Positions 12,491-35,115 of a stretch of DNA of 36,697 nucleotides are shown here, one piece after another (the first letter of the stretch is position 1; each line of letters opens with the position of its first letter). This DNA is from Planctomycetota bacterium (GTDB taxonomy: Bacteria > Planctomycetota > Phycisphaerae > Phycisphaerales > Zrk34), in NCBI GenBank assembly GCA_043788485.1, contig JAYVTU010000017.1:1-36697 (forward strand), written 5' to 3'. The notes beneath the pieces were generated by a model. The model was not told where the DNA came from and did not search any database. It saw nothing but the letters and a program-made list of their open reading frames with translations. A program made the translations under genes and the position numbers.

Positions 12491-12618
12491 GGGGGGATTC
12501 GGAGTTTCAAGTTTCAGAGTTTCAAGTGGGAAGTTAAAGGCAAGTCGAGGCGGGCATTTTACGCGATTTGTGGTGCGGTGTTTTCAACTTGAAACTTGAA
12601 ACACTGAAAATGGAAACT
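12491..12618. repeat. Long imperfect hairpin between queE and queD; arms are tandem GTTTCAAG / CTTGAAAC repeats capped by G6 / C6
   Basis: GGGGGGATTCGGAGTTTCAAGTTTCAGAGTTTCAAG ... CTTGAAACTTGAAACACTGAAAATGGAAACTTCAAACCCCCC, seen directly. Confidence 0.7.
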
Positions 12619-13314
12619 TCAAACCCCCCTCGTCTGCGGGTCCCAGATGAGCTTGTGGAGCTGGGTCTGGATGCGGACGGGGAGGTTGTCGCGGAGGGTC
12701 CACTCGGCGAGGTCGCGGAGGCTCAGGCCGGTGGAGCCGGCCAGTTCCTTTCCGGGCGGGGTTTCGTGGACGGCGCTCAAGAGGATGGCGGCGACGCGGC
12801 GGTCGAGGTTGTGCTCGGCGATCACGGATTTGGCCCAGTCGTAATCCTCGGCGCTGGTGAGAACGATTTTCACTTCATCGTGCGGCGTGAGGTGGGCGAT
12901 GTTGGCCCAGAGGTTTTTTCCCGTTTCGCCGCTGCCGGGTGTTTTGAGGTCCATGATGCGGATGACGCGGGGATCGCAGAGGGAGATGTCGCAGGCGCCG
13001 GAGGTTTCGATGAGGACGGTGTAGCCGAGGTCGGCGAGGCGCGACATGAGCGGGTGGACGTTTGCCTGGAGGAGCGGCTCACCGCCGGTGATCTCGACGA
13101 GTCGGCAGGGGCCGGCGAGGCGGTGGACTTCGGCGATGATTTCATCGAGGCTTTTTTTGGAACCCTCGTGGAAGGCGTATTCGGTGTCGCAGTAGCCGCA
13201 GCGGAGGTGGCAGCCTGTGAGGCGTACGAAGACACAGGGGAGCCCGGCCCGGGTGGATTCGCCCTGGATGGAGAAGAAGATTTCATTGATCTTGAGGGAA
13301 GGGGTGCTGCTCAT
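12619..13314 (-). CDS. queE: 7-carboxy-7-deazaguanine synthase (radical SAM)
   Basis: A QueE-type cluster motif CxxxCxxC variant (LTGCHLRCGYCDTEYAF), the IFFSIQGES start and the ITGGEPL motif are present. Confidence 0.88.
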   Translation of the reverse strand: MSSTPSLKINEIFFSIQGESTRAGLPCVFVRLTGCHLRCGYCDTEYAFHEGSKKSLDEIIAEVHRLAGPCRLVEITGGEPLLQANVHPLMSRLADLGYTVLIETSGACDISLCDPRVIRIMDLKTPGSGETGKNLWANIAHLTPHDEVKIVLTSAEDYDWAKSVIAEHNLDRRVAAILLSAVHETPPGKELAGSTGLSLRDLAEWTLRDNLPVRIQTQLHKLIWDPQTRGV

Positions 13315-13323
13315 GGCGTGAAA

Positions 13324-13674
13324 TTATTTTTCATCGGAGCCGGTGGCGGGCTTGGCGGTGTCGGCGGTGGATTTGTCCGCATCGGTTGTGGATTTTTGGG
13401 CGTCCGTGTCGGATGACCGTCGTGGAGACGGGTTACTTCCCGGCAGGAAGGATGTTCGGGAATCGGGGGACTCGGTTTCGGGGCCATCCGAGGTGGCGGT
13501 GGATTCATCACTGTTGAATTCCGGCATTTCGTCCGGGGCTTCGAAGAAGACGATGAGCGCGATGGACGCCACGGCGACGCCGCCCAGTGTCAGTCCCAGC
13601 AACCAGAGTTCGCGCCGCCTTCCGGTCGTTCGTCGATAGGTTCGCCTGCCCACGTTGCCCCCAGTCTTGAACAA
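13324..13674 (-). CDS. Small hypothetical membrane-anchored protein embedded in the que cluster (Arg-rich N-terminus, one TM, Ser/Thr/Asp-rich tail)
   Basis: The ORF is packed between queC (16-nt gap) and queE (9-nt gap) on the same strand. It is low-complexity, so coding status is uncertain. Confidence 0.45.
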   Translation of the reverse strand: MFKTGGNVGRRTYRRTTGRRRELWLLGLTLGGVAVASIALIVFFEAPDEMPEFNSDESTATSDGPETESPDSRTSFLPGSNPSPRRSSDTDAQKSTTDADKSTADTAKPATGSDEK

Positions 13675-13689
13675 CGTTGGAGTCGAAAG

Positions 13690-14391
13690 TCAATCCCGCC
13701 ACAACGGATCGGACATTCCCAACTGAGCAAACGCTCTCTGCCTCAGCAGGCACGCATCGCAATGGCGGCAGGGGCCGCCGTCCGGTAGAGGATCGTAGCA
13801 TGAATGTGTCAAACTGTAATCCACGCCTAACGCGATTCCACGTTGGATTATTTCAATCTTAGGCAGGTCGATGAGGGGGGTGTGGATGGTGAGCCTGATA
13901 TGGCCCTGGACGGCGGCCTTGGTGGCGAGGTTCGCCAGTTGCTCAAAAGCAGCGATGAATTGCGGGCGGCAATCGGGGTAGCCGGAGTAATCGACAGCGT
14001 TGACACCGATGAAGAGGTCAGCGGAACCGATGACCTCGGCGAAGCCCAAGGCGTAGGCAAGGAAGATCGTGTTGCGGGCGGGGACGTAGGTCACGGGGAT
14101 GCCGCCGGCCTCGGACATCTGCGAATCGCTGCGGTCCTTGGGGACGGCGATCTGGTCGGTCAGCGCGGAGTGCTGAAAAGCCGCGGGATCGAGCTTGATG
14201 CGGCGGTGCTCGACGGCTCCGAGCGATTTGGCGACGGCGTCGGCGGCGTTGAGTTCGGCGTGGTGACGCTGACCGTAGTCGAAAGAGAGGGCGTGGCAGG
14301 CGAAGCCCTGCTGGATGGCGATGGCGAGCGTGGTGGCGCTGTCGAGGCCTCCGGAGAGGAGGATGACAGCGGGGGGCTTCTGAGGTTTCAT
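13690..14391 (-). CDS. queC: 7-cyano-7-deazaguanine synthase
   Basis: The PP-loop motif [12 protein letters not shown] and the C-terminal zinc Cys cluster (CYDPxPDGxPCxHCDAC) are present. Confidence 0.9.
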
Positions 14392-14470
14392 CGGATTAGT
14401 TTAACGGATGTGCGGAGGGGTTTGCGCACGGAAAAAAGAAGATCGCGAAGCCGCAAGCGGCAAGACAAAT

Positions 14471-15925
14471 TTACTCGCCGAGGGCGTTGAGGCGGTCGCG
14501 CAGTTCCTTGACCTTGGCTTCGACGGAGGCGGCGTCGGCGGAGACGACGCCCAGCGACGCGTTGGCGAGGATCAGATTCTGGATCGCGGCGCGTTCGACG
14601 GCCTTGTCCTTGGTCTTGGCGGCGGTGGCGATCTTGTCGAGCCGCGTGATGGCTTTGCCGAGGATCGCGACGGCCTGTTCCTTGGCGTCGGCGGACTGCT
14701 TGGCGGCGTCGGTGGAGGCGGTGGTGATCGCGGGGGCTTGTGCGGGCAGAGCGGCGGTGACCGACTCGCCGATGTTCTTGAGGTGCTCGGCGTAGCCGGC
14801 CTGGATGAGCATGAGCTGACGGTAGAGGAAGCCCTGCTCGGCGAGCGCGGCGCCGGCGGTGAGGTCGGCGAGCACCTTGCCATCTTCGGGCGCGGATCGC
14901 ATGGCCTCGTCGGCGCTCTTGACGGCGGCGTCGTATTCCGCGGAAGCCTTCTTGCAGAGTTCGGCGATGTCGGCCTGTGTCTTGGTGTATTTGTCGAGGG
15001 TGGCGACGAAGCCCATGATCACGTTGCCGCTGGAGTCCTTGGTGCCGTTGATCAGCTTGTCGAGCGTGGCCTTGGATTCGTCGGCGTCGGTCTTGAGCTG
15101 GGTGATGCGTGCGTTGATGGCGGTGAGGGCGTCCTGCGTGGCCTTGAGCTGGACATTGGTGCCGTCGAGGCGGGCCTGTTCGACCTGCTGCTGCGACTGG
15201 GCGACGCTCAGGTTGGCCTGGGCGACGTCGGCCTTGGAATTGAACTGATCGGCGGCGCGGGTCGATTCGCCGACTTTGACGTAGAGGTCGTATTGGGCCT
15301 GACCCTTGGCGGCGAAGGCCTTGCGGGAGAAGTCATCAGCCTCGGCGGATTTGGCCTTCTGCGAGGCGGTGAGCTGTGTGATCTGACCTTGGAGTTCTTT
15401 GATCGTCACGCCGGCCTGCGCGGCGGAAGCGGTGAACTCCTGGGCCTTCGACTGCAACTGTTTTTCGGAGTCCTGAAGTTCAGTGAGCTGCTTGGTGAAA
15501 TCGACCTTCGCGGATTCGACACCGGCGGAGGCGGTCAAACGGATGCGCGAGCCGAGTGTGATGAGGTCGGTGGCGGCGCCGCCCTGCGACGTCCATGCAC
15601 GCTCGGCATTGCTGGAGAGCATGCGGGCCTGAGAGCTGTGGCCCTCAGCGATGAGTAGGCTGGCGGCGATCTGATTGGCGGCACGGCCGGATTTGCTGAG
15701 CGTCGTCACGTTCGCGGCGGCTTTCTGAAGCTGCTGCTGACGGTATTCGTTGATGGGTTCGGAGGTGCTGACGCGCTTGATCTCGCGCGTGTCGCTCTGG
15801 ACGCGGCCTAGATAGCCAGCGGTTTCCTCGAGCTTCTTGTCGGCCTCGGCCTGGTCGCGGCTGGCCTGCTCGGGGTTGCAGGAGGCGAGGGCGAGCAACG
15901 GGATGATGAGGAATCGGCGGGTCAC
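14471..15925 (-). CDS. Lipoprotein, predicted long coiled-coil (Ala/Gln/Lys-rich), hypothetical
   Basis: A signal peptide with lipobox LLALASC is followed by about 460 aa of heptad-like low-complexity sequence. No enzymatic motif is seen. Confidence 0.55.
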   Translation of the reverse strand: MTRRFLIIPLLALASCNPEQASRDQAEADKKLEETAGYLGRVQSDTREIKRVSTSEPINEYRQQQLQKAAANVTTLSKSGRAANQIAASLLIAEGHSSQARMLSSNAERAWTSQGGAATDLITLGSRIRLTASAGVESAKVDFTKQLTELQDSEKQLQSKAQEFTASAAQAGVTIKELQGQITQLTASQKAKSAEADDFSRKAFAAKGQAQYDLYVKVGESTRAADQFNSKADVAQANLSVAQSQQQVEQARLDGTNVQLKATQDALTAINARITQLKTDADESKATLDKLINGTKDSSGNVIMGFVATLDKYTKTQADIAELCKKASAEYDAAVKSADEAMRSAPEDGKVLADLTAGAALAEQGFLYRQLMLIQAGYAEHLKNIGESVTAALPAQAPAITTASTDAAKQSADAKEQAVAILGKAITRLDKIATAAKTKDKAVERAAIQNLILANASLGVVSADAASVEAKVKELRDRLNALGE

Positions 15926-16019
15926 TTGGAAGCTCCGCGTAGTAAACGTCGTATGGGACGAGGCCTTGCGGGTGCAAGTATATCAAGGGGCGGCGTTAGC
16001 CGCGATGTCTAGATCAGGA

Positions 16020-17399
16020 TCAGGGCGCGGGCGGTGTGGGAGCCGGCGGGGTTGCGGGAGGTGCGGGCGGTGCCGGGGTTTCGGGTGTGCCGGGGGCGGG
16101 CGGGGAGACGGGTGCATTCGGATCGGCGGGGGGTGTTGGTGCTGCGGGAGTGCCGGGGGCACCGGGGGCAGCTGGCGCCGCGCCGGGAACGGGCTTAACG
16201 GGTGGCGGGGCGGGCATCTTGTATTCGATGGGGTAGTCGTCGGGGTGTTTATAGAGCGATTTGATCCAATCCAGGATGTCGAGGTAACGCTTGTCCTCGC
16301 GATTGGAGAAGAAAGGTTTCCAGCCGCGTACATCGGGGTGGGGCGTGGTGGCATCCTTGCGGGGCAGGCCATATTGCACGAGTGCGGAGCTCTCGGGCTG
16401 GCCGGGGACGAGGAAGGGGACGCCGTTGCCCTTGGCGCGGCCGGCGAGGATCAGGTTGGTGTACGCGACCTGATCGACGGTGGCGCGCTGCGTGAACACG
16501 AAGAAGCCGGGCGTCTTGCCCTCACCGTGGCAGGCGCCGCAGTAGCGCACGAGGTACGTGGCGTTGACGCGCGTCTTGAAATTCTTGAGGTTCGCCGGCT
16601 CCTCGCGGACCTGCACCTTCTTGTAGAAGTCGCGGGCCTGGAGCTTGAAGAGGATCTTGAGCTGGTCGGCTCCGTCCATGGATAGAAGTTTGCGTTCGCC
16701 ATTGGTGCCGATGTAGTCGGCGAGGATCGGGTCCTGGCGGTACTTCTTGAGTACAGCTTCGATCACATCCTTGGTCACGTTGATGACCGGCGGCGGCTGT
16801 GAATCAATGTCCACCTCATAAACGCGGATGAGGTTCATCTCCTCGGGTGTGAGCAGACGCGGCGTCTTGCCGTCGCTCACGGGCGGCTTGTCGGTCGTCT
16901 CGGGTTTGTCGGTTGGCGGCTTGGGAGTGGTGGGTGTGGGCGTCGTCGGCGTGGTGGTCTTGGTCAACGACTTGATGCGGTCCTGCACGACGCTGCGCAG
17001 CAGGCTCGCCTGCTGATGATCGGGATGTGCCGTGAGAATGGAATCGAGCTCCGCGAGCGAGAGCTTGTACGACTCGGGCGTCTTCTGATCGTAGAGCCAG
17101 CGGGCGAGTTCAAAGTGGCCGTTGAGATCGTCATCCGCGAGCAGGTCGCGCTTCTCCTGATACTGCTCCTGGAGATTGAGCTTGTAGTGGACGCCGTCGT
17201 CCTTGATCTCGGTGCGGGGGATGGTGGCGTCGATGCCCTTGATGCGGACGGTGATGGCGGCGCTGGTCTCGGTGACGAGCTCGCCGGCGATCTGCCGACC
17301 GTCCTTGAGCGCCAGCTCGACCTCGCGCGCCGAAGCGGCGGTGGCGATGACCAAAACTAAGGCGGCCGCGCATCGGCCGATCCGCTGGGTCAAAAGCAT
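16020..17399 (-). CDS. Secreted protein with a single CXXCH (cytochrome c-like, Planctomycete-cytochrome-type) motif, a Thr/Pro linker and a Pro-rich C-terminal tail
   Basis: Start is ATG 17399 (MLLTQRIGRCAAALVLVIATAASA signal peptide). The motif RYCGACHGEGK is seen directly. The tail consists of PAPxxP repeats. Confidence 0.6.
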   Translation of the reverse strand: MLLTQRIGRCAAALVLVIATAASAREVELALKDGRQIAGELVTETSAAITVRIKGIDATIPRTEIKDDGVHYKLNLQEQYQEKRDLLADDDLNGHFELARWLYDQKTPESYKLSLAELDSILTAHPDHQQASLLRSVVQDRIKSLTKTTTPTTPTPTTPKPPTDKPETTDKPPVSDGKTPRLLTPEEMNLIRVYEVDIDSQPPPVINVTKDVIEAVLKKYRQDPILADYIGTNGERKLLSMDGADQLKILFKLQARDFYKKVQVREEPANLKNFKTRVNATYLVRYCGACHGEGKTPGFFVFTQRATVDQVAYTNLILAGRAKGNGVPFLVPGQPESSALVQYGLPRKDATTPHPDVRGWKPFFSNREDKRYLDILDWIKSLYKHPDDYPIEYKMPAPPPVKPVPGAAPAAPGAPGTPAAPTPPADPNAPVSPPAPGTPETPAPPAPPATPPAPTPPAP

Positions 17400-17574
17400 G
17401 GGCAGCTCCTTGATGTGATGCCTCGTCAGGTCCGCTTCACTATAATCGCCTCCGCGCCACGGGCAAGCCTCGCTGCCCGTGACGGTTGCAATCCTCTCCA
17501 CTTTAGACGCTCGCATCCCCTCCCCGGTTCACGTCCCCGGCCGCAATACCCCAACCCCCGCCTACGATGTGGCC

Positions 17575-17799
17575 ATGAAACGCCGCAAGCCCACACGCCA
17601 GAATGCCAGCGACAATGAGTCCGCCTACACCTGCCCCACCTGTGGCCAGAGCATCGTGATCCCGCTGGACATCTCCGCCGGCGATCAGCAGCAGTACATC
17701 GAGGACTGCCCCGTATGCTGCAACCCGAACGTGATCCACGTCGAATTCTTCGGGGGTGACGAGCCGCCGCGCATCTCGGCGGAGGCGGAATCGGTGTGA
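17575..17799 (+). CDS. Small cysteine-rich CPxCG-type zinc-finger protein
   Basis: The motifs CPTCGQ and CPVCCNP resemble the CPXCG-related zinc-finger family. ATG 17575 is preferred over the 17479 extension. Confidence 0.55.
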   Translation: MKRRKPTRQNASDNESAYTCPTCGQSIVIPLDISAGDQQQYIEDCPVCCNPNVIHVEFFGGDEPPRISAEAESV

Positions 17800-17821
17800 G
17801 CGTCACACGCGTCGCGCCGGC

Positions 17822-24273: not shown

Positions 24274-24285
24274 TTGTTGGGTGGT

Positions 24286-24378
24286 TGGGGCAAAGGCTTT
24301 GCGTGCCCCAGTTTTTGGCGCGATCCAATGTGTGTCCAAGACACTGGGGCACGGCGACCTTTGCCCCAGCCACCCGGA
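24286..24378. repeat. Near-perfect long inverted repeat (about 34-bp arms) just after the stop of the large gene
   Basis: TTGGGTGGTTGGGGCAAAGGCTTTGCGTGCCCCAGT ... ACTGGGGCACGGCGACCTTTGCCCCAGCCACCCGG; no U-tract follows. Confidence 0.7.
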
Positions 24379-24756
24379 TGTTGCCTCGAAACTATCCACC
24401 GAGTATCCCATGTTGGCAGTGTGGGTTGCAGCGATCCGTTAAACCCCCATTGCTATCGTGACCCCCCGTGTGATAATGGTTCTCGTGTAGCCGAGTCCCG
24501 TCCGCGATGGACGGGAGCGGGGGACCCAAACGGGCATTGAAACTGCCGCGAAATGTGCGGTTGAACCAATGCCCACGGGGCTTAGGACCGCGATGAGCGG
24601 TCCGGGGCGACCTTTCAAGCCCTAGCCCGTCAGCTAACCCCGTAGGCAGGGCCCGACTCAGTTGTCGGCGCCCACTGAAAGGGCACCACCCGTCCTTGAA
24701 AAAGACGAGGAGCCCGAGCCACTTTTGGGGCGACGTTCGCCCAAAGGAGCGGGGTT

Positions 24757-26988
24757 ATGTTCTGCGCTATGTTTGGTTCTGCGTTGAGTCCCGGATTGTT
24801 CGACCTGTCACTGTGGGATCTGGCGGCCAAGCTCAACTGGTTTGAGTGGCTGCTGGTGCTGACGGCGGTGGCGCTGTTCGTCGCTTGGTTGACGACGCGC
24901 TACATCCCCAACAACTCCGTCGGCGTCGTCGAGAAGCTATGGTCGGCCTCGGGCTCGGTCCCCGCGGGCGGCATCATCGCGCTGCGCGGCGAAGCGGGAT
25001 TCCAGGCGGACCTGCTGCGCGGCGGCGTCCACCCGGGCCTGTGGCGGTGGCAGTACCGCATCCACAAGGTGAGGCTCGTCACCATCCCGCAGGGCAAGAT
25101 CGGCTACGTCTATGCACGCGACGGCGAACCGCTTCCGCCCAGCCAGACGCTCGGGCGCGTTGTCGAGTGCAACAACTATCAGGACGCCGATGCGTTCCTG
25201 GTGCCGAGTGCGAGCAAACGGGGTGACGCCACAGCACCGACGCGCGGCCAGCGTGGCCGGCAGCGGGCGATCCTGCGCGAGGGTGTCTACGCCATCAACC
25301 CGGCGCTCTTCGTGGTCATCAGCGAGTCGGCGGTTTATTCGCTGCCTCACCTGCAGGACCGCCAGGAGCTCGAGACCGCGCGGCGCTGGCAGCAGGAGCT
25401 CGCGCAGACCGGCGGGTTCAGCCCGCTTGTCATCGGCGGCGCACGCCTCGAAGACCTCGCGGAGAAAACCACCGCCACATCCACCGATACGATCGGCATC
25501 GTGACCGTACAGGACGGCCCGCCCCTGGGCCCCGGCGAGATCATCGCGCCGGCGGTCGGTGTCGATCCGGGATTGCCGGGGTTCCACAACAACTACCAGG
25601 ACCCCGAAGCGTTTCTCGCGGCCGGCGGTCGTCGCGGCCGGCAGTACGTCCCGCTGACCGATGGCACGTACTTCCTCAATCACTGGTTCGTCAGCGTCGA
25701 GGTCGTCGCGAAGACGGTCGTGCCGATCGGATACGTCGGCGTGGTCGTCAGCTACGTCGGCAAGGCGGGGCGCGACGTGTCGGGTGACGCGTTCCGCCAC
25801 GGCGAGCGCGTGGAGCAGGGCGAGCGCGGCGTGTGGGAGAAGCCGCTCGGTCCCGGCAAATATCCCTTCAACACCTACGCCGGAAACATCATTCATGTGC
25901 CGACGACGAACTTCGTCCTGCACTGGATTACCGGCAAAACGGAGAGCCACAAGTATGACGAGAGCCTCAAGTCGATCGACCTGGTGACGAAGGACGCGTA
26001 CGAGCCGATGCTGCCGCTCTCGGTGGTCGTGCACATCGACTACCAGCGGGCGCCGAGTGTGATCCAGCGGTTCGGTGATGTGAAAAAGCTGATCACGCAG
26101 ACGCTGGACCCGATGCTCAGCGCGTACTTCCGCGACATCGCGCATCGCAAGACGATGCTGGAGCTGCTGCACGACCGCGATGTGATTCAGACCGAGGCCC
26201 GCGAGGAGCTCCGCCGCAAGTTCCGCGAGTTTGACATCGAATGCGTGGACGTCTTGATCGGCAAGCCCGACACGGACGAGACGCACGGTGTCAAGAGCGG
26301 CGCGGGCAAGATCGAGACGCTGCTGGAGCAGCTGCGTCTTCGTCAGCTGAGCTTCGAGCAGCTCGAGACGTACGAGCGGCAGCGGGCAGCAGCCGACAAG
26401 CTGCGTGCGCTCAACGAAGCGCAGGCGCAGGCGAACATGCAGACGCAGCTGACGAACGCGCGTGTGCAGGCGCAGATCGCCGAGTCGATGGGCGAGGCGG
26501 ACCTGCAGCGAGCGAGGAAACAGGCGGAGCAGACGGTCGTCGTCGCCGAAGCCGAACTGGCTCGCTCGCGGCGCCAGGCGGAGCAGACGGTCGTGCTCGC
26601 CGAGGCGGACAGCCGGAGCCGGAATCTCGCCGGCAAAGGCGAGGGCGAGCGGATCATGCAGGTCGGCACATCGGAAGCGGCGGTGCTGGTCCGCAAGATC
26701 CAGGCGCTGGGCGACCCGCGGTTGTACGCGGTTTCGCAGGTGGCTGAGAGTTTGAGCCACTCCGTGCAGCCGCTGGTGCCGCAGCGTTTGTTTGTCAGCG
26801 GCGGCGGAGCGGGCAGCGAGGACGGCCAGGGCCGGACGAGCCTCGGCATGCTGGGCGTGCTGATCGATCTGCTCGTGGCGGAAAAGACGGGCATGAAGCC
26901 CGGCGGCGGCGAAAGCGGTGGGGCGGCAGACGCTTCACTGATCACTGCAACGGCCGCAACGCCTGCGCAGTCGCCGGCCAAAGCGTGA
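24757..26988 (+). CDS. Flotillin-like SPFH/Band-7 family protein
   Basis: N-terminal TM, SPFH core (VVVHIDYQRAPSVIQRFGD), flotillin-type EA/AEQ-rich coiled coil, and a Gly-rich tail. Good RBS (AAAGGAG) 7 nt upstream of the ATG. Confidence 0.85.
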   Translation: MFCAMFGSALSPGLFDLSLWDLAAKLNWFEWLLVLTAVALFVAWLTTRYIPNNSVGVVEKLWSASGSVPAGGIIALRGEAGFQADLLRGGVHPGLWRWQYRIHKVRLVTIPQGKIGYVYARDGEPLPPSQTLGRVVECNNYQDADAFLVPSASKRGDATAPTRGQRGRQRAILREGVYAINPALFVVISESAVYSLPHLQDRQELETARRWQQELAQTGGFSPLVIGGARLEDLAEKTTATSTDTIGIVTVQDGPPLGPGEIIAPAVGVDPGLPGFHNNYQDPEAFLAAGGRRGRQYVPLTDGTYFLNHWFVSVEVVAKTVVPIGYVGVVVSYVGKAGRDVSGDAFRHGERVEQGERGVWEKPLGPGKYPFNTYAGNIIHVPTTNFVLHWITGKTESHKYDESLKSIDLVTKDAYEPMLPLSVVVHIDYQRAPSVIQRFGDVKKLITQTLDPMLSAYFRDIAHRKTMLELLHDRDVIQTEAREELRRKFREFDIECVDVLIGKPDTDETHGVKSGAGKIETLLEQLRLRQLSFEQLETYERQRAAADKLRALNEAQAQANMQTQLTNARVQAQIAESMGEADLQRARKQAEQTVVVAEAELARSRRQAEQTVVLAEADSRSRNLAGKGEGERIMQVGTSEAAVLVRKIQALGDPRLYAVSQVAESLSHSVQPLVPQRLFVSGGGAGSEDGQGRTSLGMLGVLIDLLVAEKTGMKPGGGESGGAADASLITATAATPAQSPAKA

Positions 26989-27106
26989 CGTCTCACTCGT
27001 TTTGAAGTTCATCGTCCCCGGCGGGCCATCACCCGCCGGGGATTTTTTTTCGTCACGCACACGGATCGATTTCCGCCGGGGGAACCGTAGGTTCCTCTGG
27101 CGGGAG

Positions 27107-27558: not shown

Positions 27559-27658
27559 GTTAATGGGTTAATGGGTTAATGGGTTGATGGGTTGATCTGG
27601 GGTTGCGCACGTGCCGTTCTTCCACGTTAACCCATTAACCCGTTAACTCATTAACCGG
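27559..27658. repeat. Palindrome built of tandem GTTAATGG / CCATTAAC octamers in the divergent promoter/5'UTR region between sugE and the 27731 gene
   Basis: GTTAATGG x3 and GTTGATGG x2, about 30 nt of spacer, then GTTAACCCATTAACCCGTTAACTCATTAACCGG. Confidence 0.7.
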
Positions 27659-28177: not shown

Positions 28178-28286
28178 CGTTCCCCGTCGGGCCCCTCGTT
28201 AAAGGGCACCGACTTTGCTAATCAACCACAACGGTGGCCGGAAGGATCCGGCCCATATGCCCCATTTTTGAAAGACGGAGTCTCAC

Positions 28287-28601: not shown

Positions 28602-28609
28602 AAAAAATA

Positions 28610-28797
28610 GAGGTCAGAGGTCAGTGATCAGAGGTCAGCGGGATTGACCATCGCTGTCGCATGGACATGTTTTTCGTGCTCGTGCTCGTGCTCGTAAATC
28701 GTAATCGAATCTCCGGGAGGGGATCGATTACGAGAAACGATTATGAGCACGAGCACGATGGAAATTTGCTTTGGCTGCGCCTGACTTCTGACCTCTG
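28610..28797. repeat. Nested palindromic element: outer GAGGTCA repeats / CTGACCTC, inner CGTGCT-repeat / CGATTAC hairpin (copy 1)
   Basis: GAGGTCAGAGGTCAGTGATCAGAGGTCAG ... CGTGCTCGTGCTCGTGCTCGTAAATCGTAATCGAATC ... GATCGATTACGAGAAACGATTATGAGCACGAGCACGA ... CTGACTTCTGACCTCTGG. Confidence 0.75.
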
Positions 28798-28798
28798 G

Positions 28799-29095
28799 CT
28801 ACTTATGCCCCACGGGTCCGCCGCCCTGGAGGTATTTGTTGCGCACCGCCTGCTCGAGGTTCACGCCGTTGATGTTCGCCAGCGTGCAGAGCCATGCGAG
28901 TACGTCGGCGAATTCCTCTTCGGTATTCTTGCGGTCGTCACCGTGCAGCGCGGTGGCGAGTTCGCCGACCTCCTCGACAAACCACATGAACGTCGCCGGA
29001 GTGCCGCGCGCCGAATCGCTGGCGTAGTAGCGCTCGCGGATGTGCTGCTGGAATGATTCGAGTGTGAGGTTGTCGTTGGTCATTGGTGTTCCCAT
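28799..29095 (-). CDS. Small MazG-like nucleoside triphosphate pyrophosphohydrolase (YpjD-like single-domain)
   Basis: The EExGEL-type motif FVEEVGELATA and EEEFADVLAWLCTLAN are present. Start is ATG 29095. The longer GTG 29212 version would translate the upstream palindrome. Confidence 0.75.
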   Translation of the reverse strand: MGTPMTNDNLTLESFQQHIRERYYASDSARGTPATFMWFVEEVGELATALHGDDRKNTEEEFADVLAWLCTLANINGVNLEQAVRNKYLQGGGPVGHK

Positions 29096-29096
29096 T

Positions 29097-29166
29097 CTTT
29101 TCGTGCTCGTGCTCGTAATCGTAATCGAAAAATGGGACTCGATTACGATTACGAGCACGAGCACCG
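29097..29166. repeat. Second copy of the CGTGCT/CGATTAC palindromic element, immediately 5' of the mazG-like start codon
   Basis: TTCGTGCTCGTGCTCGTAATCGTAATCGAAAAATGGGACTCGATTACGATTACGAGCACGAGCAC. The arms are near-identical to copy 1. Confidence 0.75.
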
Positions 29167-29239
29167 CTCGAAGACTCGCTGAGCACGTGGGGAGGGAATC
29201 GTGCACGTGCACGTGTCACGTGCACGGCCGCGAACTATC

Positions 29240-31018
29240 ATGTCCGCCATGCAATCAGCGGTACAACCAAAATCCATCACGCAGTGGCGCACGCAGATCG
29301 CTCTGCTCCTCGCCTGGTTCCTCATGCTCGGTCTGAGTTTCCCTCGCCCCGGCCTCTGGCCTCTCGCGCATCTCGCCCTCGTCCCGCTCACGCTGCTCGC
29401 AATCTTCGGCCGCCCGCTGCGCCGCATCCGCTGGCTCACGTTCGCCTTCGGCACGCTCTGGTGGCTCTGGATGATCTACTGGATGATCCCCGTCACGTTC
29501 CTCGGCTACCTCGGCCTCTCCGCCATCGAAGGCTCGTTCGTCGTGATGTTCGTCGCCATCATCCAACTGCTCGTTGGCGATCGCTTCATCACCACGCCCT
29601 CCGGCTCCGCTCCGGTGTTAGCCGCAGGCGGAAGCCGGCGGGTCCGCTTCCCCATCCCCTTCATCCTCCTCATCCCCACGATCTGGGTCGCCCTCGAATA
29701 CATCCCCGGCGCCATCATCGTCGACGGCTTCCCCTGGTTCCTCATCGCCCACAGCCAGCCCACATGGTTCATCCAGATCGCCGACACCGTCGGCCCCTAC
29801 GGCGTCTCGTTCCTCGTCGCGATGACCAGCGGGATGATCATCGATGTCTGCGAATTTCCCGTGCTGCGACGCGATTCGCAAAAGCGCATCGATTTAACGT
29901 GGCGATCTGTGTCATGCGTCGGCATCTGGCTTTTGGCGATGGCCTGTGTGATCGGTGCAGCGATTCTCGAATTTAATACCGCATGGGAGCGACAAAGCAT
30001 CCGCATCGCCGTCATCCAGCCCAACGTCCCGCAGTCCAACAAAGATCACCCCGCGCCCGGGCAGGACCGCAAAGATTTCGATGAGATGCTCGCGCTCAGC
30101 GAAAAAGCTCTCGCCGAAAAACCCGACCTCATCGTCTGGCCCGAGACCATGGTGCCCCAGGCGCTCAACAACGAAAGCCTCCAGCATTACCCGCGACTGA
30201 CCCGCGCCGCCGAGTACCTCTACTATCACGATGCCCTCGAGAAATTCGCGGCGGTCCACACCGTCAACCTCATGGTCGGCGCCCACGCCTTCACCAACTG
30301 GCGCGAAGACAAAACGCGCGGCTACGTCTTCAAGGTGTTCAACTCCGCATTCCTCTTCAAACCCGATGGCCTCGATCAACGCTACTTCAGCAAGATCCAC
30401 CGCGTCCCGTTCGGCGAGTACATGCCCGGTGTCGAATCCATGCCGTGGGCCAAAGAACTGCTGCTCAAGCTCACGCCGTATGAATCGGACTACACGCTCC
30501 AGCCCGGCACGGAGTACGTTCGATTCGAGATCAATAAGCAACCGCAGGCGAGCGGCTCACCTCAATCTTTCCGCATCGCGACGCCCATCTGTTTCGAGGA
30601 CGTCATCAGCGACGTGCCACGCCAGATGGTCTACGGTTTCGATGGCAAGAAGCGAGTCGATGTGCTTGTCAACATCTCCAACGACGGCTGGTTCCACGGC
30701 ACGTGGCAGGGTCCTCAGCACGAGGCGATCGCGCGGTTCCGCTGCATCGAAAACCGCGTGCCGATGGCGAGATCCGTCAACACCGGCATCAGTTCGTTCA
30801 TCGACTCCGGCGGCAACGTGCTCGAACGCGTCGTCACCGACGGGCGTACACAGGAGGTCGCCGGTTTCGCCGTCGCCGATGTGTGGATCGACAACCGCGT
30901 GACGATCTACAGCCGGATCGGCGACGCCCCGGCGGTCGCGTGCCTCGTGGCGACGATCGGCTTGATCGCCGCGGCGATCGGACGCAAACTCTACCGCAGA
31001 CGCGGAGGCAAACCGTGA
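29240..31018 (+). CDS. lnt: Apolipoprotein N-acyltransferase
   Basis: An N-terminal polytopic membrane domain is followed by a CN-hydrolase domain with the catalytic triad context (IVWPE ... FKPDG...K ... ICFEDV). Start at ATG 29240 or 29249. Confidence 0.85.
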   Translation: MSAMQSAVQPKSITQWRTQIALLLAWFLMLGLSFPRPGLWPLAHLALVPLTLLAIFGRPLRRIRWLTFAFGTLWWLWMIYWMIPVTFLGYLGLSAIEGSFVVMFVAIIQLLVGDRFITTPSGSAPVLAAGGSRRVRFPIPFILLIPTIWVALEYIPGAIIVDGFPWFLIAHSQPTWFIQIADTVGPYGVSFLVAMTSGMIIDVCEFPVLRRDSQKRIDLTWRSVSCVGIWLLAMACVIGAAILEFNTAWERQSIRIAVIQPNVPQSNKDHPAPGQDRKDFDEMLALSEKALAEKPDLIVWPETMVPQALNNESLQHYPRLTRAAEYLYYHDALEKFAAVHTVNLMVGAHAFTNWREDKTRGYVFKVFNSAFLFKPDGLDQRYFSKIHRVPFGEYMPGVESMPWAKELLLKLTPYESDYTLQPGTEYVRFEINKQPQASGSPQSFRIATPICFEDVISDVPRQMVYGFDGKKRVDVLVNISNDGWFHGTWQGPQHEAIARFRCIENRVPMARSVNTGISSFIDSGGNVLERVVTDGRTQEVAGFAVADVWIDNRVTIYSRIGDAPAVACLVATIGLIAAAIGRKLYRRRGGKP

Positions 31019-31036
31019 GTGAGATTCGCAATAATT

Positions 31037-31133
31037 CGGTTCGGGTGCCACTGGTCGGCGTCCTCGCAGACCAGTGTGTCTTGGGCGACAGACACTGGTC
31101 TGCGGAGGAACCGCCGACCAGTGGCACCCGCTG
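31037..31133. repeat. Near-perfect hairpin with about 42-bp arms and a 6-nt loop between lnt and the HEAT-repeat gene
   Basis: CGGTTCGGGTGCCACTGGTCGGCGTCCTCGCAGACCAGTGTGTC ttgggc GACAGACACTGGTCTGCGGAGGAACCGCCGACCAGTGGCACCCGCTG. Confidence 0.75.
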
Positions 31134-31167
31134 TAAGCCCGTCTTACTCGCCACCGTCATCGCTGCG

Positions 31168-32163
31168 ATGCTCCTGGCACCGGTGTTATCGTACGCCGCC
31201 GAGGAAGAAGCCCCGACCCCGCCGAACATCAAGGTTCCCGCGGCTCCGGTCGCGCCGGCGGACACCGTGCAGCGGGCCGTCGCGGTGCTTGTCGATGCGT
31301 CCGTCGGTGACATCGCATCGCTGCGATGCAACGCGGTCGAGGCGATGGAAATGCTGCCGCACCGGGCGCTGCCGGTGATGCAGAAGGCGCTGGGCGATCC
31401 GAATCCGGCGGTGCGTTTCGCGGCCGTGGTGACCAGCGCGAAGCTGAAGATGAAGGAACTCTCGCCGTCGATCCAGCCGCTGATCAAGGATGAGAATCCT
31501 TCGGTGCGGGCGGCGGCGATCGCCGCGCTTTTCGCGCTGGGTCAGAAGGTGGACCTCACGCCGCTGGGCGATCTGCTGCGTGCGCCCGATCCGGGTTTGC
31601 GCTCGAATGTCGCGATGCTGCTGGGGATGCTCGGCGACGCCAGCGCGGTGCCGATGCTCAAGAGCGCCGCGGAGGTTCCGATGCCGCGCGCCAGCGCCGC
31701 GCAGATCGCCGTGACGCGCATCCAGATCGCCGAGGCGATCGCGAAGCTCGGCGATGACAAGTCGCCGCAGCGCGGAGCCGAGCTCGATGCGCTGCGTGCG
31801 GGGATTTACAACAGCATGGGCGAGGTGCGCATTCTCGCGGTCAATGCGGTCGGCGAGGTGCATGATCAGGGTTGCGAGGGGAGTTTGGCGCGGCTGCTGA
31901 CCGAGGGGCCGCTGGAACTGCAGCTCGCGGCCGCCGCTTCGCTGCGCCGCCTCGGCAACGCCAAGGGCCTGCCCATCGCGATCCAGTACAGCGCCCACGA
32001 CGACCCGGTGATCCGGGCCCAAGCGGCTTGGGCCCTGGGCTGGTTCAACGGCAACCTCAGCTACAACCACCTCGCCCGGCTGCTGAATGATCCGGAGCCC
32101 CACGTGCGCGTCGCCGCCGCCGCCTCGATCGTCCGCCGCACGCGGAATCAGGACGGGAAGTAA
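31168..32163 (+). CDS. HEAT-repeat (PBS-lyase-like) protein, probably secreted or periplasmic
   Basis: Repeated DPNPAVRFAA / DENPSVRAAA / DPGLRSNVA / DDPVIRAQAAWALG / DPEPHVRVAAA units are seen. ATG 31168 is preferred because the upstream in-frame region is occupied by the hairpin; the start is uncertain. Confidence 0.6.
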   Translation: MLLAPVLSYAAEEEAPTPPNIKVPAAPVAPADTVQRAVAVLVDASVGDIASLRCNAVEAMEMLPHRALPVMQKALGDPNPAVRFAAVVTSAKLKMKELSPSIQPLIKDENPSVRAAAIAALFALGQKVDLTPLGDLLRAPDPGLRSNVAMLLGMLGDASAVPMLKSAAEVPMPRASAAQIAVTRIQIAEAIAKLGDDKSPQRGAELDALRAGIYNSMGEVRILAVNAVGEVHDQGCEGSLARLLTEGPLELQLAAAASLRRLGNAKGLPIAIQYSAHDDPVIRAQAAWALGWFNGNLSYNHLARLLNDPEPHVRVAAAASIVRRTRNQDGK

Positions 32164-32358
32164 CCACAGAGGCACAGAGGCACAGAGACACAGAGGAAGG
32201 CACAAGCATTGAGATGGTGAAACACCAAGGCACCAAGGGCACCAAGGAATGCAAAAATGAAGGGAAAATGGCGTTGAATTCAAAATCTTTCCGCCTTCCT
32301 GCGTGACCTCGCTGCCTTGTTATCAAAATATCCCTGCCTTCCTCTGTGTCTCTGTGGT
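32164..32358. repeat. Tandem CACAGAGG repeats with an inverted CCTCTGTG partner, plus an internal CACCAAGG x3 tandem repeat
   Basis: CCACAGAGGCACAGAGGCACAGAGACACAGAGGAAGGCA ... CACCAAGGCACCAAGGGCACCAAGG ... TGCCTTCCTCTGTGTCTCTGTGG. Confidence 0.7.
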
Positions 32359-32504
32359 GAGATATTCCGTTTTCCCGTTTTGAACTGGTTGACAAAGTTC
32401 GGCCCCCGGGTTACTTATCAATCATCCGATAACGGGATTTCATCCCTTCGGATTCACCGAATCGCAGACCCGCAGGTCCCCAACCGGACTCTCTGGAGGC
32501 GCCC

Positions 32505-33353
32505 TTGAGCATCTTTACCAAGATCTTCATCGTGCTGGTTATGGTCCTGTCCGTGCTTCTGGCCGCGTTGTCTACGGTTTACGTCGCCAACGTCGACAGC
32601 TACAAGACCAAGTACAACGACGAGAAGCATCGCCGCGAGGTGTCCGATGCCAACGCCGCCGTCCGCGAGGGCGACCTGGCCGACAAGCTCAACGCCATCC
32701 AATCGAAGCTCGACAGCGCCGAGGGCGAGGTCTCCCGCGCCAAGTCGATCGTCAACACCAAGGACCGTGACCTCGAAAGCGTCAAGGGCGAGCTCATCGC
32801 CGCCCAGACCGCCAACGCCGACGTCCGCGGCCAGCTCGCCCGCCTCTCCTCCGCACTGGACCAGTCGCAGAAGATCCTCGGCCTGACCGAAGCCGAAGTG
32901 AAGCAGCGCCGCGAAGAGATGCTCAAGCTCCAGTTCCGCAACGTCGAGCTCAACGACAAGGTCCAGGAACTCTCGACGCAGGGTGAGACGCTCATCCGCC
33001 AGGTCCGTCTGCTCAAGGAGCAGGTCGCCGACCTCGAGAATCAGAACCAGGAACTGGTCAAGAGCGGCGGCGGCAAGAAGGGCACCGTCGATGTCGTCAC
33101 CCCGGCCCCCGGCGTCACGATCCACGGCACCGTCACCGATGTCCAGAAGATCGGCGACGCGACCTTCGTCGCACTCAACGTCGGCACCAACGACGGCGTC
33201 CGCGAGGGCATGAAGTTCCTCATCCACCAGGGTGACAAGTACCTCGGCGACGTCACGATCCAGAAGACCGACCTGAATACCGCCGCCGGCCGCGTCGTCC
33301 TCTCCAAGGGCGAAATCACCGCCGGCGCCGAAGCGATGACCGGCGGGTTCTGA
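32505..33353 (+). CDS. Hypothetical membrane-anchored coiled-coil protein with a C-terminal beta-rich domain
   Basis: Apparent TTG start, N-terminal TM (IFIVLVMVLSVLLAALSTVYV), then a coiled coil of about 170 aa. Family unknown. Confidence 0.55.
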   Translation: MSIFTKIFIVLVMVLSVLLAALSTVYVANVDSYKTKYNDEKHRREVSDANAAVREGDLADKLNAIQSKLDSAEGEVSRAKSIVNTKDRDLESVKGELIAAQTANADVRGQLARLSSALDQSQKILGLTEAEVKQRREEMLKLQFRNVELNDKVQELSTQGETLIRQVRLLKEQVADLENQNQELVKSGGGKKGTVDVVTPAPGVTIHGTVTDVQKIGDATFVALNVGTNDGVREGMKFLIHQGDKYLGDVTIQKTDLNTAAGRVVLSKGEITAGAEAMTGGF

Positions 33354-33386
33354 TCCCAGTTTCCCTCAAGGTGCAGGAGAGTCGCG

Positions 33387-33608
33387 ATGGCTGACACCGA
33401 ATTTGCCGCAACGCCCCGGATCAAGGCCAAGGCCTCCAACAACGTCTACACCGCGCTGCTGGCGATCGCGTTCCTGGCCCTGACGGGGGCGACCGTCGTC
33501 GTGTGGAAGACCAACGTCGAGCTGACCAAGGGGCTCCAGCCGCAGGGCGCGCTGCCGAACCCCTTCTTCCACGCCACCCCCGAGCAGATCGAAAAAGCTC
33601 CCTCCTGA
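33387..33608 (+). CDS. Small (73 aa) single-TM hypothetical protein
   Basis: RBS GGAGAG 6 nt upstream. A TM helix (ALLAIAFLALTGATVVVW) is present. A canonical terminator follows immediately. Confidence 0.45.
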   Translation: MADTEFAATPRIKAKASNNVYTALLAIAFLALTGATVVVWKTNVELTKGLQPQGALPNPFFHATPEQIEKAPS

Positions 33609-33640
33609 GCAGCGGCATCTCTCACTCTCGACCTCCACAA

Positions 33641-33667
33641 CCCCGAGCATCCCTCGGGGTTTTTTTG
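33641..33667 (+). terminator. Rho-independent terminator
   Basis: CCCCGAG-catcc-CTCGGGG followed by TTTTTTT. Confidence 0.75.
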
Positions 33668-33672
33668 TGTCA

Positions 33673-33843
33673 AAAAACTTTGGGGCAATGACGAATGACG
33701 AAATTCGAATGACGAATCAAATTCCAATGATCAAATTCCAATGGGGAAAGGCAACCGAAGGCTCCGTTTCGTCATTGGAATTTGGAATTTGATCATTGAT
33801 TCGTCATTCGAATTTCGTCATTCGTCATTACCCCAAAGCTTTG
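33673..33843. repeat. Very long AT-rich palindrome (about 70-bp arms) built from GAATGAC and AATTCCAATG tandem units, upstream of mreB
   Basis: CTTTGGGGCAATGACGAATGACGAAATTCGAATGACGAATCAAATTCCAATGATCAAATTCCAATGGGG ... CATTGGAATTTGGAATTTGATCATTGATTCGTCATTCGAATTTCGTCATTCGTCATTACCCCAAAG. Confidence 0.8.
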
Positions 33844-33997
33844 CGTCACGGCCGCATCACGTTATCATCTGCCGTGGTTTGCGTGACGCGATCACGGGGT
33901 GATCCGCAGCCGACAGACCCATTGAAATTTCCGCCGTGCGCCGGCTCCCCGCCATGGCGCCGTCGAAAGGTGGCCGCCGTTGAATCTGCTGGACAAC

Positions 33998-35035
33998 ATG
34001 CTTTCCTGGTTCAGTGTCGATATGGGCATCGACCTGGGCACGTGCAATTCGCTGGTCTGCGTGCGCGGCGAGGGCATCGTGCTCAACGAGCCCTCGGTCG
34101 TTGCTGTCTACAAGAACACCAATAAGGTTTATCTCGACGGCAACGCCGTCGGTTTCGTCGCCAAGGAAATGCTCGGCAAGACGCCCGGCTCGATCACCGC
34201 GATCCGCCCGCTCAAGGACGGCGTGATCAGCGACTTCGCCATCACCGAGGCGATGCTCAGCTACTTCATCCGCAAGGTGCAGGGCCGCCGCAGCTTCATC
34301 GGGCCGCGCGTGGTCATCGCCGTTCCGTCGGGGATCACGGCGGTCGAGAAGCGGGCCGTGTTTGAATCGGCGGAACGTGCCGGAGCCCGTAAGGTGTTCC
34401 TCGTCGAGGAGCCGATGGCCGCGGCGCTGGGAGCCGGGCTGCCGGTGGCTGAGGCGACGGCGAGCATGATCGTGGACATCGGCGGCGGCACGACCGAGGT
34501 CGCCATCCTCTCGCTGGCCGACATCGCTGAGTGCACGAGCATCCGCGTCGCCGGCGACGATTTCGACGAGGCGATCATCTCGCACATGAAGAAGACGTAC
34601 AACCTGATGATCGGCGAGCAGACCGCGGAGCGCATCAAGCTGGAGATCGGATCCGCGGCGCCGCTGGCCGAGGAGAAGACGATGGAGGTGCGCGGCCGCG
34701 ACATGATCAGCGGGCTTCCGCGAAAGACCGTCGTCACGTCTGAGGAGATCCGCGAGGCGCTGCAGGAGCCGCTCTCTGGCATCATCAACGCCGTGACGCG
34801 CACGCTGGAGCGCGCCGAGCCCGAACTCGCCGCCGACCTCGTGGACAACGGCATCACCCTCGCCGGCGGCGGGGCGCTGCTCCGCAACATCTGCGTCGTG
34901 CTGCAGAACGCGACGGGCCTCGAGGTCCGCATCGCCGACGATCCGCTGACCTGCGTCGCCCGCGGGACCAGCATCTACCTCGAAAGTTTCGAGACGCTCA
35001 AGAACACGCTCGAGAGCGATTACAGCCAGGTCTAA
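33998..35035 (+). CDS. mreB: Rod shape-determining actin homologue MreB
   Basis: The motifs GIDLGTxNS, DIGGGTTEVAI and LAGGGALL are present. ATG 33998 is preferred over the TTG 33980 of the track. Confidence 0.92.
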   Translation: MLSWFSVDMGIDLGTCNSLVCVRGEGIVLNEPSVVAVYKNTNKVYLDGNAVGFVAKEMLGKTPGSITAIRPLKDGVISDFAITEAMLSYFIRKVQGRRSFIGPRVVIAVPSGITAVEKRAVFESAERAGARKVFLVEEPMAAALGAGLPVAEATASMIVDIGGGTTEVAILSLADIAECTSIRVAGDDFDEAIISHMKKTYNLMIGEQTAERIKLEIGSAAPLAEEKTMEVRGRDMISGLPRKTVVTSEEIREALQEPLSGIINAVTRTLERAEPELAADLVDNGITLAGGGALLRNICVVLQNATGLEVRIADDPLTCVARGTSIYLESFETLKNTLESDYSQV

Positions 35036-35040
35036 AACAA

Positions 35041-35115
35041 GGGTTCAGGGTTCGGGGTTCAGGGTTCAGGACTCGGCACTCCGAACCTGAATCCTGAACC
35101 CCGAACCCTGAACCC
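35041..35115. repeat. Hairpin of tandem GGGTTCA / TGAACCC heptamers between mreB and mreC
   Basis: GGGTTCAGGGTTCGGGGTTCAGGGTTCAGGACTCGGCACTCCGAACCTGAATCCTGAACCCCGAACCCTGAACCC. Confidence 0.8.

Follow-up and report, generated by a model that had tools for sequence, protein, structure and literature searches.

We analyzed a 36,697-nt stretch of DNA (the whole of contig JAYVTU010000017.1 of GenBank assembly GCA_043788485.1, hereafter the window) from the metagenome-assembled genome of a member of Phycisphaerales (phylum Planctomycetota, class Phycisphaerae, GTDB lineage Zrk34), in which long hairpins, mostly with arms built of short tandem repeats, occupy gaps between genes. Judging from the sequences, these hairpins appear to be several sequence families of one kind of dispersed non-coding palindrome that occurs across the class Phycisphaerae. 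The families keep their sequence across orders at non-orthologous sites, and the hairpins have therefore probably been copied between loci rather than grown anew at each locus. The loci collected for comparison are denoted by L numbers; L001 is from the same organism as the window and is identical in sequence.

Long hairpins in the window

All of the long hairpins listed in a preliminary description of the window were recovered, in place or a few bases off, by Tandem Repeats Finder (TRF), an inverted-repeat search and direct reading. With an ungapped finder (arm of at least 18 nt, loop of at most 150 nt), nine long inverted repeats were detected, all intergenic and all between 12.4 and 35.2 kb, compared with a mean of 0.05 and a maximum of 1 in 40 dinucleotide-preserving shuffles. 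The z-scores of RNA folding ranged from –7.1 to –13.1 for these hairpins and from –1.8 to +0.6 for the other gaps of the window, except for gaps with canonical terminators. A scan of local folding energies (ViennaRNA, RNALfold-type) was uninformative because coding DNA at 64% GC yields many strong local folds, and inverted-repeat criteria were used in its place. The arms are 19–90 nt long and 79–100% complementary, the elements span 64–195 nt, and most arms are tandem arrays of 6–8-nt units. At least seven unrelated units occur within 23 kb of the window, GGG runs are absent from most of them, and each TRF array has a reverse-complement array a few tens of bases downstream. The elements are as follows (copy numbers in TRF arrays are given after x).

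12491–12629: (GTTTCAR)n arms with a G6/C6 clamp, filling the queE-queD junction (co-directional); inverted repeat 12492–12538 / 12583–12629, 47 nt, 79% complementary; TRF arrays AGTTTCA x3.4 (12503–12527) and AACTTGA x5.4 (12586–12624); z = –7.1
24279–24375: near-perfect, no tandem units, GGGTGG...CCACCC; co-directional gap; z = –8.9
27559–27656: (GTTAATGG)n / (TTAACCCA)n arms; divergent gap between the SMR gene (–) and ORF 27731 (+); TRF arrays GTTAATGG x4.4 (27559–27593) and TTAACCCA x3.8 (27627–27656); z = –8.6
28609–28798: outer hairpin, (GAGGTCA)n, 4 versus 2 units; convergent gap between the DUF2934 and MazG-like genes; TRF array AGAGGTC x4.3 (28609–28638)
28674–28758: inner nested hairpin, (TCGTGC)n(TCGTAA)n, same family as 29101–29164; TRF array TCGTGC x3.7 (28674–28695); z = –12.5
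29101–29164: perfect 26-bp hairpin, (TCGTGC)2(TCGTAA)2; divergent gap between the MazG-like gene (–) and lnt (+); inverted repeat 29103–29128 / 29139–29164, 26 nt, 100% complementary; TRF array TCGTGC/TCGTAA (29101–29127); z = –13.0
31037–31133: near-perfect, no tandem units, CGGGTGCCACTGG...; co-directional; inverted repeat 31042–31060 / 31112–31130, 19 nt, 100% complementary; z = –10.3
32164–32358: CCACAGAGG(CACAGAGR)n ... CCTCTGTGTCTCTGTGG with an inner (CACCAAGG)3 array, unequal arms; co-directional gap; TRF array CACAGAGG x4.0 (32165–32196)
33667–33849: GAATGAC family, 90-nt arms with a GGGG/CCCC clamp; co-directional gap; inverted repeat 33667–33756 / 33760–33849, 90 nt, 80% complementary; TRF arrays AATGACG x4.4 (33687–33717) and ATTCGTC x4.4 (33799–33829); z = –12.5
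35039–35117: (GGGTTCA)n arms, 97% complementary; co-directional gap; inverted repeat 35039–35070 / 35086–35117, 32 nt; TRF arrays AGGGTTC x4.4 (35040–35070) and CCTGAAC x4.4 (35086–35116); z = –13.1

The statement in the preliminary description that nearly every intergenic gap contains such a hairpin holds from 27.5 to 35.2 kb (8 of 9 gaps) but is overstated from 13 to 24 kb. Likewise, the two hairpins described as lacking tandem repeats are both present, but the one at 31037–31133 is probably located within the 5΄ end of the HEAT-repeat open reading frame (ORF) rather than between genes.

Recurrence of the arm sequences in other genomes

A different repeat unit had been assigned to every locus; contrary to this, arm sequences recur at other loci and in other contigs. 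The arm of the element at 33667–33849 is irregular (GAATGAC GAAATTC GAATGAC GAAT CAA...), and the irregular 24-mer GAATGACGAAAKTCGAATGACGAA (GAATGAC GAAATTC GAATGAC GAA) had at least 120 exact matches in unrelated Joint Genome Institute (JGI) metagenome contigs. Among the matches listed, the GC content of the contigs was 49–67%, a partner arm was recognizable within 330 nt in 56 of 120 cases and the median element was 132 nt. The irregular arm also forms a hairpin in the mreB-mreC gap of a metagenome-assembled genome (MAG) of Tepidisphaeraceae (L049) and in a MAG of Tepidisphaerales (L060), and one of the metagenome contigs with the 24-mer (L140, 52% GC) is from Sedimentisphaerales-like Phycisphaerae, as the named homologues of a protein encoded on it belong to Phycisphaerae and Sedimentisphaerales. 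The GAATGAC family therefore spans at least three orders, at non-orthologous sites.

Other arm sequences of the window were found in a viral collection. The exact 25-mer across the TCGTGC/TCGTAA junction was present at one locus (L278) and a 13-mer in L157, and GAGGTCA arrays ((GAGGTCA)4-like) were present at 26 loci. The pattern (CACAGAGG)3 was found at 45 loci, with CCACAGAGG...CCTCTGTGG ends as in the window element and with a downstream partner in 27 of the 45, (GGGTTCA)3 was found at 71 loci, and 80 loci with (GTTTCAR)3 were analyzed; these counts for plain three-unit patterns are without a composition-matched control and should be read cautiously, a caveat that spares the matches to the irregular 24-mer and the 25-mer and the shared element ends. 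Several families are multicopy within a single contig, with two copies of TCGTGC/TCGTAA in the window and two copies of a family each in L083 and L106. Among 80 mreB-centered loci of other Phycisphaerae (1.2 Mb), we found 47 long inverted repeats, of which 16 had periodic arms; their distribution was patchy, with none in most genomes and several in a few. Single-linkage clustering of 7-mers at one mismatch chained nearly everything and was uninformative.

For the non-tandem hairpins, a 'GGGTGCCAC' family was considered and rejected, as the 18-mer matches (L436 and L437) are chance-like, lying in coding sequence with no partner arm. The resemblance of these hairpins to L005 and L012 is a lead only.

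Further repeated modules were seen in the collected loci. L014 (5100–5480 and 12500–12640) and L016 (5260–5500 and 18900–19150) contain composite intergenic modules, in which a core of ~40 nt (ATACCCGGNCCTTCGCTNCGCTCAGNACCNGCGTTGGG) lies between different heptamer arrays, with direct and inverted copies 7–14 kb apart. A TTCGCTGCGCTCAG core lies in or beside the GAATGAC elements of L108, L150 and L205, and within the loop in L150. In other REP-like families (repetitive extragenic palindrome, REP), a GC-rich palindrome comes after a constant 5΄ tag (CATTTAGCC..., TCAGAGCC..., GTTAGCCGTYGCCGTCCCCGGCGACGCGC..., GTAGCACGGGTTTTCAACCCGTGC), and they were found in L052 (7879, 10951 and 15443) and L007 (12701), in L050 (12427 and 16177) and L052 (2668), in L082 (4645 and 16985), and in L046 (3036), L056 (2510) and L142.

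Shared architecture of the hairpins

The elements share an anatomy in which a G-rich quasi-tandem array, mostly of 7-nt units, forms the 5΄ arm and is followed by a variable loop and a C-rich complement as the 3΄ arm. Many stems are closed by a G/C clamp at the base, and in some elements the loop contains a further palindrome (28609–28798 in the window, L062 and several GAATGAC loops). The periods of intergenic tandem repeats peak sharply at 7 (89 of 174 arrays in the loci then compared). Among periodic hairpins, 17 of 22 have a period of 7, as do 10 of 11 from a replicate sample. In the informative periodic hairpins, G exceeded C in the 5΄ arm without exception (21:0; G196:C62), as was again observed in an independent 476 kb (10:0). 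Among the viral-collection matches, the reverse-complement partner was located downstream rather than upstream (56:3), and the pooled polarity was 77:3 in favor of the G-rich arm first. The polarity of a palindrome is identical on both strands, and the direction of transcription therefore cannot explain this rule, which is opposite to the polarity of the canonical terminators of the window (C-rich 5΄ arm and G-rich 3΄ arm). No terminal motif common to the window elements was found. The arms co-vary slightly beyond the family consensus, with 154 compensated positions, whereas shuffles gave 130.5 on average and 153 at most.

The symmetric growth of both arms that had been proposed agrees with unit counts that are usually similar between the arms, but not with arms that are often unequal, as in the element at 32164 and the outer element at 28610 (each with 4 versus 2 units). 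Array copy numbers differ between L014 and L016, which are 94% identical, and also between family members. Given the unequal arms, slippage modulates the elements without explaining them.

Position relative to genes and the mreB-mreC junction

The gene map of the window was built from an analysis of GC content at third codon positions (GC3) and from Pfam, and is as follows.

First 12 kb: trpE, dprA, M16 peptidase gene, ino1
Minus strand: queD-queE-queC
After the que genes, in order: HtrA-like protease gene, gene for a 1452-aa heparinase-like protein
Next group: SMR gene (–), DUF2934 gene, MazG-like gene (–), lnt (+)
Far end: HEAT-repeat gene, coiled-coil gene, mreB-mreC-mreD

The MreB of the window, which has Phycisphaerae neighbors and a best match at 86% identity, places the window in Phycisphaeraceae.

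For the GAATGAC family, the median distance was 12 nt to the adjacent stop codon versus 62 nt to the adjacent start codon (P = 0.002), the latter distance being conservative because the ORF caller takes the longest ORF. Fifty-two of 60 elements were located outside the heuristic gene calls, and many fill co-directional gaps to within 2–20 nt of both genes. In the window, two hairpins fill operon junctions exactly. At queE-queD, the base of the stem contains the queE stop codon (12619–12621, minus strand), and the opposite end directly adjoins the queD ATG (12488–12490); at mreB-mreC, the hairpin extends from 3 nt past the stop codon to the mreC start. The element at 32164–32358 starts at the first base past the HEAT-gene stop codon, the hairpin at 24279–24375 lies 5 nt past the stop codon of the heparinase-like gene and ~100 nt upstream of a c-di-AMP riboswitch, and the element at 33667–33849 lies 6 nt past a canonical terminator and ~130 nt upstream of mreB. 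The loop of the hairpin at 28609–28798 contains the TCGTGC/TCGTAA hairpin at 28674–28758, and the second copy of this family (29101–29164) is on the opposite side of the MazG-like gene.

The junction downstream of mreB is a hot spot: a long hairpin was found within 100 nt of the mreB stop codon at 10 loci, compared with 2.0 expected for hairpins spread evenly over intergenic DNA (Poisson, P = 5e-5). The units in the mreB-mreC gap vary by genome and include TTTTGAT, ATTTTAG, AGAAGCA, CGCAGATGAA, GAATGAC, AGTTGTC and others. With a median of 12 nt from stop codons and the enrichment after mreB, the role at gene 3΄ ends considered in the preliminary description is plausible.

Two further observations concern this junction and the riboswitch. 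Downstream of mreB in L079 (4837–5037), tandem units of ~50 nt each have their own short hairpin (CACCGATGTCGGCTCTGCGACATCGGTG), a different solution at the same position. The c-di-AMP riboswitch (ydaO/yuaA-type, RF00379) is located at 24479–24663 on the plus strand, with 55.3 bits against a gathering score of 38, and precedes a 743-aa SPFH/Band-7 gene (24757–26988), a gene that is unusual downstream of riboswitches of this class. In Anabaena, a separate monocistronic mreB transcript exists alongside the operon transcript (PMC7593598). This paper was considered as a precedent for hairpins at mreB-mreC and rejected, since its mention of STRR sequences (repetitive sequences that are short and repeated in tandem) is only an entry in the reference list.

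Gain and loss in the nearest relatives

The nearest relatives fetched were L082 and L083, the Lnt proteins of which are 55 and 48% identical to that of the window. Because the nearest Lnt is only 55% identical, the hairpins were not alignable base by base, and their presence, position and unit type were compared. Both relatives keep the gene order DUF2934, MazG, lnt, HEAT, coiled-coil and mreBCD.

In both L082 and L083, lnt and the HEAT-repeat gene overlap by 4 nt (ATGA) with no gap. The window has a GTGA stop/start overlap (31015–31018) at this junction, past which the hairpin (31039–31131) forms a 93-nt in-frame insert before the signal peptide. Since the overlap is kept as in the relatives, this hairpin is an insertion. 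The insert adds ~31 residues ahead of the signal peptide of the HEAT protein, unless the ATG at 31168 now serves as the start codon. The mreB-mreC gap measures 11 nt in L082, 81 nt in the window and 98 nt in L083, where it contains an (AGTGYGG)n hairpin. In L082, a (GTTTCAR)n hairpin lies in the convergent gap of the DUF2934 and MazG genes; its unit is the one found at the queE-queD junction of the window. Both in the window (28799–29092, minus strand) and in L083 (9603–9884, minus strand), the MazG-like gene has a hairpin of one family on each side, and the family differs by genome, being TCGTGC/TCGTAA in the window and GTGAAGTGGCGA-type in L083. The units shared around this gene point to short-range copying or conversion, and comparison of these junctions shows that elements are gained and lost quickly where synteny is otherwise kept.

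A (CGTGCA)n array, itself palindromic (CACGTG cores), is located directly upstream of lnt (29200–29226) and is kept in sequence and position in L082 (9925–9957), the nearest relative. Given this conservation, the array is a candidate operator or promoter element and not one of the hairpin elements.

Comparison with terminators and described elements

The conventional terminators noted earlier at 7874–7909 and 33641–33667 were confirmed, and a third was found at 27013–27050, with a second hairpin beside it (27071–27105). These three canonical terminators pass a T-tract test that only 11 of 113 hairpins pass when read on the plus strand and only 8 when read on the minus strand, in agreement with the proposal of a distinct class mostly without a U-tract. 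Like intrinsic terminators, the hairpins form a stable stem-loop immediately downstream of a gene and, being symmetric, could work both ways. In contrast to intrinsic terminators, including the U-tract-poor, long-stem types of Actinobacteria, ~85% of the hairpins lack a U-tract, the stems are 25–50 bp rather than 5–15 bp, and some are located in divergent gaps. Identity with canonical terminators was therefore rejected, as the U-tract is mostly missing.

We compared the hairpins with Rfam, and none matched at the gathering score; the hairpins gave only sub-threshold matches to generic microRNA-precursor models, and the riboswitch alone passes in the window. Searches by sequence string and keyword gave no account of these elements in planctomycetes in the papers searched, and the strings matched primers only. 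The preliminary description did not recognize a described element family, which agrees with the lack of an Rfam match or a planctomycete description but not with the related inverted heptamer arrays described in Xanthomonas.

The closest precedent is these GGGAATC inverted heptamer arrays, of which each genome has 70–75 pairs, always 'convergent' in orientation and able to fold into stem-loops (Rehm et al. 2015, PLoS One, PMC4692102). Their repeat length varies between close relatives, and the single-array or inverted-pair type is usually preserved (PMC4692102). As in the elements described here, the heptamers are tandem and intergenic, and the inverted pairs have the G-rich array first. However, Xanthomonas has one unit family per genome (GGGNATC), which is G-quadruplex-capable, whereas many unrelated and mostly incapable units are present here, and these families are conserved across orders of a different phylum. 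The closeness to stop codons and the mreB-mreC hot spot are also features found here and unreported in Xanthomonas.

REP, BIME and REPIN elements resemble the hairpins in being extragenic imperfect palindromes that are multicopy, with several families per genome, mostly at gene 3΄ ends and without target-site duplication. In E. coli, REPs stabilize upstream mRNA and modulate expression within operons. However, REPs are 20–40 bp, have a GTAG/CGTC tag and non-tandem arms and are usually species-specific, whereas the elements found here are 60–190 bp, with 7-nt periodic arms and a strict G-first polarity; CGTC is found in the complement of each GAATGAC unit, as a piece of the repeat and nothing more. 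No gene for a RAYT (Y1 HUH transposase) was detected in the window by Pfam scans, and no dedicated RAYT search was made.

MITEs (miniature transposable elements with inverted repeats) that form transcribed hairpins, such as Correia/NEMIS of Neisseria, ERIC and RUP, are likewise non-coding, intergenic and co-transcribed, with long inverted termini in 100–200 bp, and Correia hairpins are substrates of RNase III. In contrast to the present elements, which show no duplication, MITEs have target-site duplications, a parent insertion sequence and non-tandem termini. The expectation that the hairpins are not copies of one MITE was borne out. L082 has an IS1595-type DDE gene, and ~2 kb from it lies a palindrome of another family (GTTAGCCG..., with copies at 4645 and at 16985).

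The cyanobacterial STRR heptamers and the TAACTGA heptamers of Beggiatoaceae, Cyanobacteria and Bacteroidetes are also tandem and intergenic, of several unit types and next to gene boundaries, and their distribution across taxa suggests transfer without a known mechanism, as here (PMC4679880). However, these heptamers form essentially direct arrays, with one inverted set among 170 in BOGUAY, and are mostly located just upstream of start codons (PMC4679880), whereas the arrays described here are inverted pairs just past stop codons. For 31039–31131 only, the Rickettsia palindromic elements (RPEs) are similar, as a palindrome in frame within a protein-coding gene; RPEs are one conserved Rickettsia family, whereas no relatives of 31039–31131 were detected. 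Integron attC sites were rejected because the flanking genes are syntenic housekeeping genes (queDE, lnt and mreBCD) and no GTTRRRY core is present at the ends.

Possible roles and origins

We favor, with about even confidence, the explanation that the hairpins are dispersed REP/MITE-like palindrome families that were copied between loci and the transcripts of which form stem-loops at 3΄ ends or processing sites. After copying, the copy number in the arms drifts by slippage. The elements would be transcribed as part of the 3΄ region of the upstream gene and would fold into stems of 25–50 bp without a U-tract; since most begin a few bases past the stop codon, with no room for another terminator, they should be co-transcribed. 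Work on REPs and on substrates of RNase III has established that stems of this kind halt 3΄ exonucleases, undergo cleavage by RNase III and can reduce read-through. Here the stems would impede 3΄ exonucleases, be sites of RNase III-type processing or terminate transcription leakily, and the cistrons on either side, such as mreB and mreC, could then differ in amount. The repeated independent occupation of the mreB-mreC junction fits such an uncoupling of cistron amounts. The stem may also place the stop codon of the upstream gene beside the start codon of the downstream gene, such that termination–reinitiation coupling would survive the insertion and large inserts would be tolerated in tight operon junctions.

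Several points weigh against this explanation. The role at the RNA level is one that we infer in its entirety, and the RNA folds of the sense and antisense strands do not differ in stability (35 versus 34), which gives no strand-specific signature of RNA selection. The gaps containing GAATGAC elements (25 co-directional, 6 convergent and 2 divergent) do not differ in type from the baseline. The hairpins at 27559 and 29101 are in divergent gaps, where there is no gene 3΄ end, and the element at 33667–33849, behind its canonical terminator, may receive hardly any transcription from upstream. In the relatives, genes were called heuristically (from GC3), and the caution due to the plain three-unit counts also applies here. 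With respect to copying, no target-site duplication was found (102 of 116 elements are without a flanking duplication, and 2-nt matches are near chance), and neither a parent insertion sequence sharing the termini nor a linked transposase was seen in the collected loci.

A possible, although rather doubtful, alternative is that the elements are purely selfish or neutral REP/MITE-like mobile DNA, and that sites past stop codons, operon junctions and hairpin loops are insertion targets or the only tolerated places. The equal stability of sense and antisense folds, the baseline distribution of gap types, and the elements in divergent gaps and behind a terminator agree with this idea, as do the in-frame insert in the HEAT-repeat ORF, the palindromes nested in loops, the patchy occurrence among genomes and the sequence kept across orders at non-orthologous sites. 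However, the lack of target-site duplications and of a linked transposase speaks against this idea, the five-fold enrichment at mreB-mreC by many families suggests more than tolerance, and maintenance of the hairpin as such is indicated by the G/C clamps and by the co-varying arms.

We also tentatively consider a previously unrecognized type of propagating element, which would have dedicated, conserved trans-acting machinery and would serve as lineage-specific operon punctuation instead of canonical terminators. Such machinery would be implied by the combination of tandem-repeat arms, G-first polarity, absence of duplication, preference for post-stop sites and loops, and cross-order families. 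Candidates include a hairpin-specific single-stranded DNA (ssDNA) transposase or recombinase, fold-back copying on G-rich nascent strands and a factor that reads a 7-nt register.

The local origin proposed in the preliminary description, in which a unit expands by slippage and template switching (quasipalindrome correction) copies the array to the other arm, so that architecture is common but ancestry is not, is unlikely. Heptamer arrays are the dominant intergenic tandem repeat of the class and many are solitary, the copy numbers differ as described for L014/L016 and for family members, the two arms usually have similar unit counts, and the MazG-flanking hairpins share units within but not between genomes, all of which agrees with local growth. 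However, identical irregular sequences, and not just the unit, recur in at least 120 unrelated contigs and three orders, and convergence cannot account for interruptions that the copies have in common, for example GAAATTC. Other loci likewise contain the conserved ends CCACAGAGG...CCTCTGTGG, paired arrays of (GGGTTCA)n and of (GTTTCAR)n, and the junction of TCGTGC with TCGTAA, and the arms are often unequal. These data suggest common descent of the family copies at different loci.

Finally, the strict 7-nt period, the strict polarity with a C-poor 5΄ arm and the conservation across orders, together with the cited binding of CspB to heptamer units (PMC4679880), would suit binding arrays for a conserved protein, with the hairpin as a regulated alternative state (a cold-shock/OB-fold protein occupying one 7-nt single-stranded RNA or ssDNA unit each, a nucleoid-associated protein or a termination/antitermination factor), but this is improbable, as dozens of unrelated units would be unreadable by one sequence-specific protein and no candidate gene is linked to the elements.

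Implications

The elements belong to a kind already known, that of dispersed intergenic palindromes and inverted pairs of tandem arrays. The strict G-first polarity and the dominance of 7-nt units, being common to Xanthomonas, may reflect a general rule for the formation or selection of inverted tandem arrays in bacteria. In practice, the elements break assemblies and mislead ORF callers; in the window, an apparent 40-residue N-terminal extension of the HEAT-repeat protein and a spurious ORF (33446–33727) were observed.

Members of Phycisphaerae abound in soils, peat and sediments, and their control of gene expression is poorly known. If the elements mark transcript ends or processing sites, they would provide a natural set of very stable, orthogonal stem-loops and a map of operon punctuation that is readable from sequence for uncultured members, and they would explain unequal amounts of neighboring products, such as MreB and MreC.

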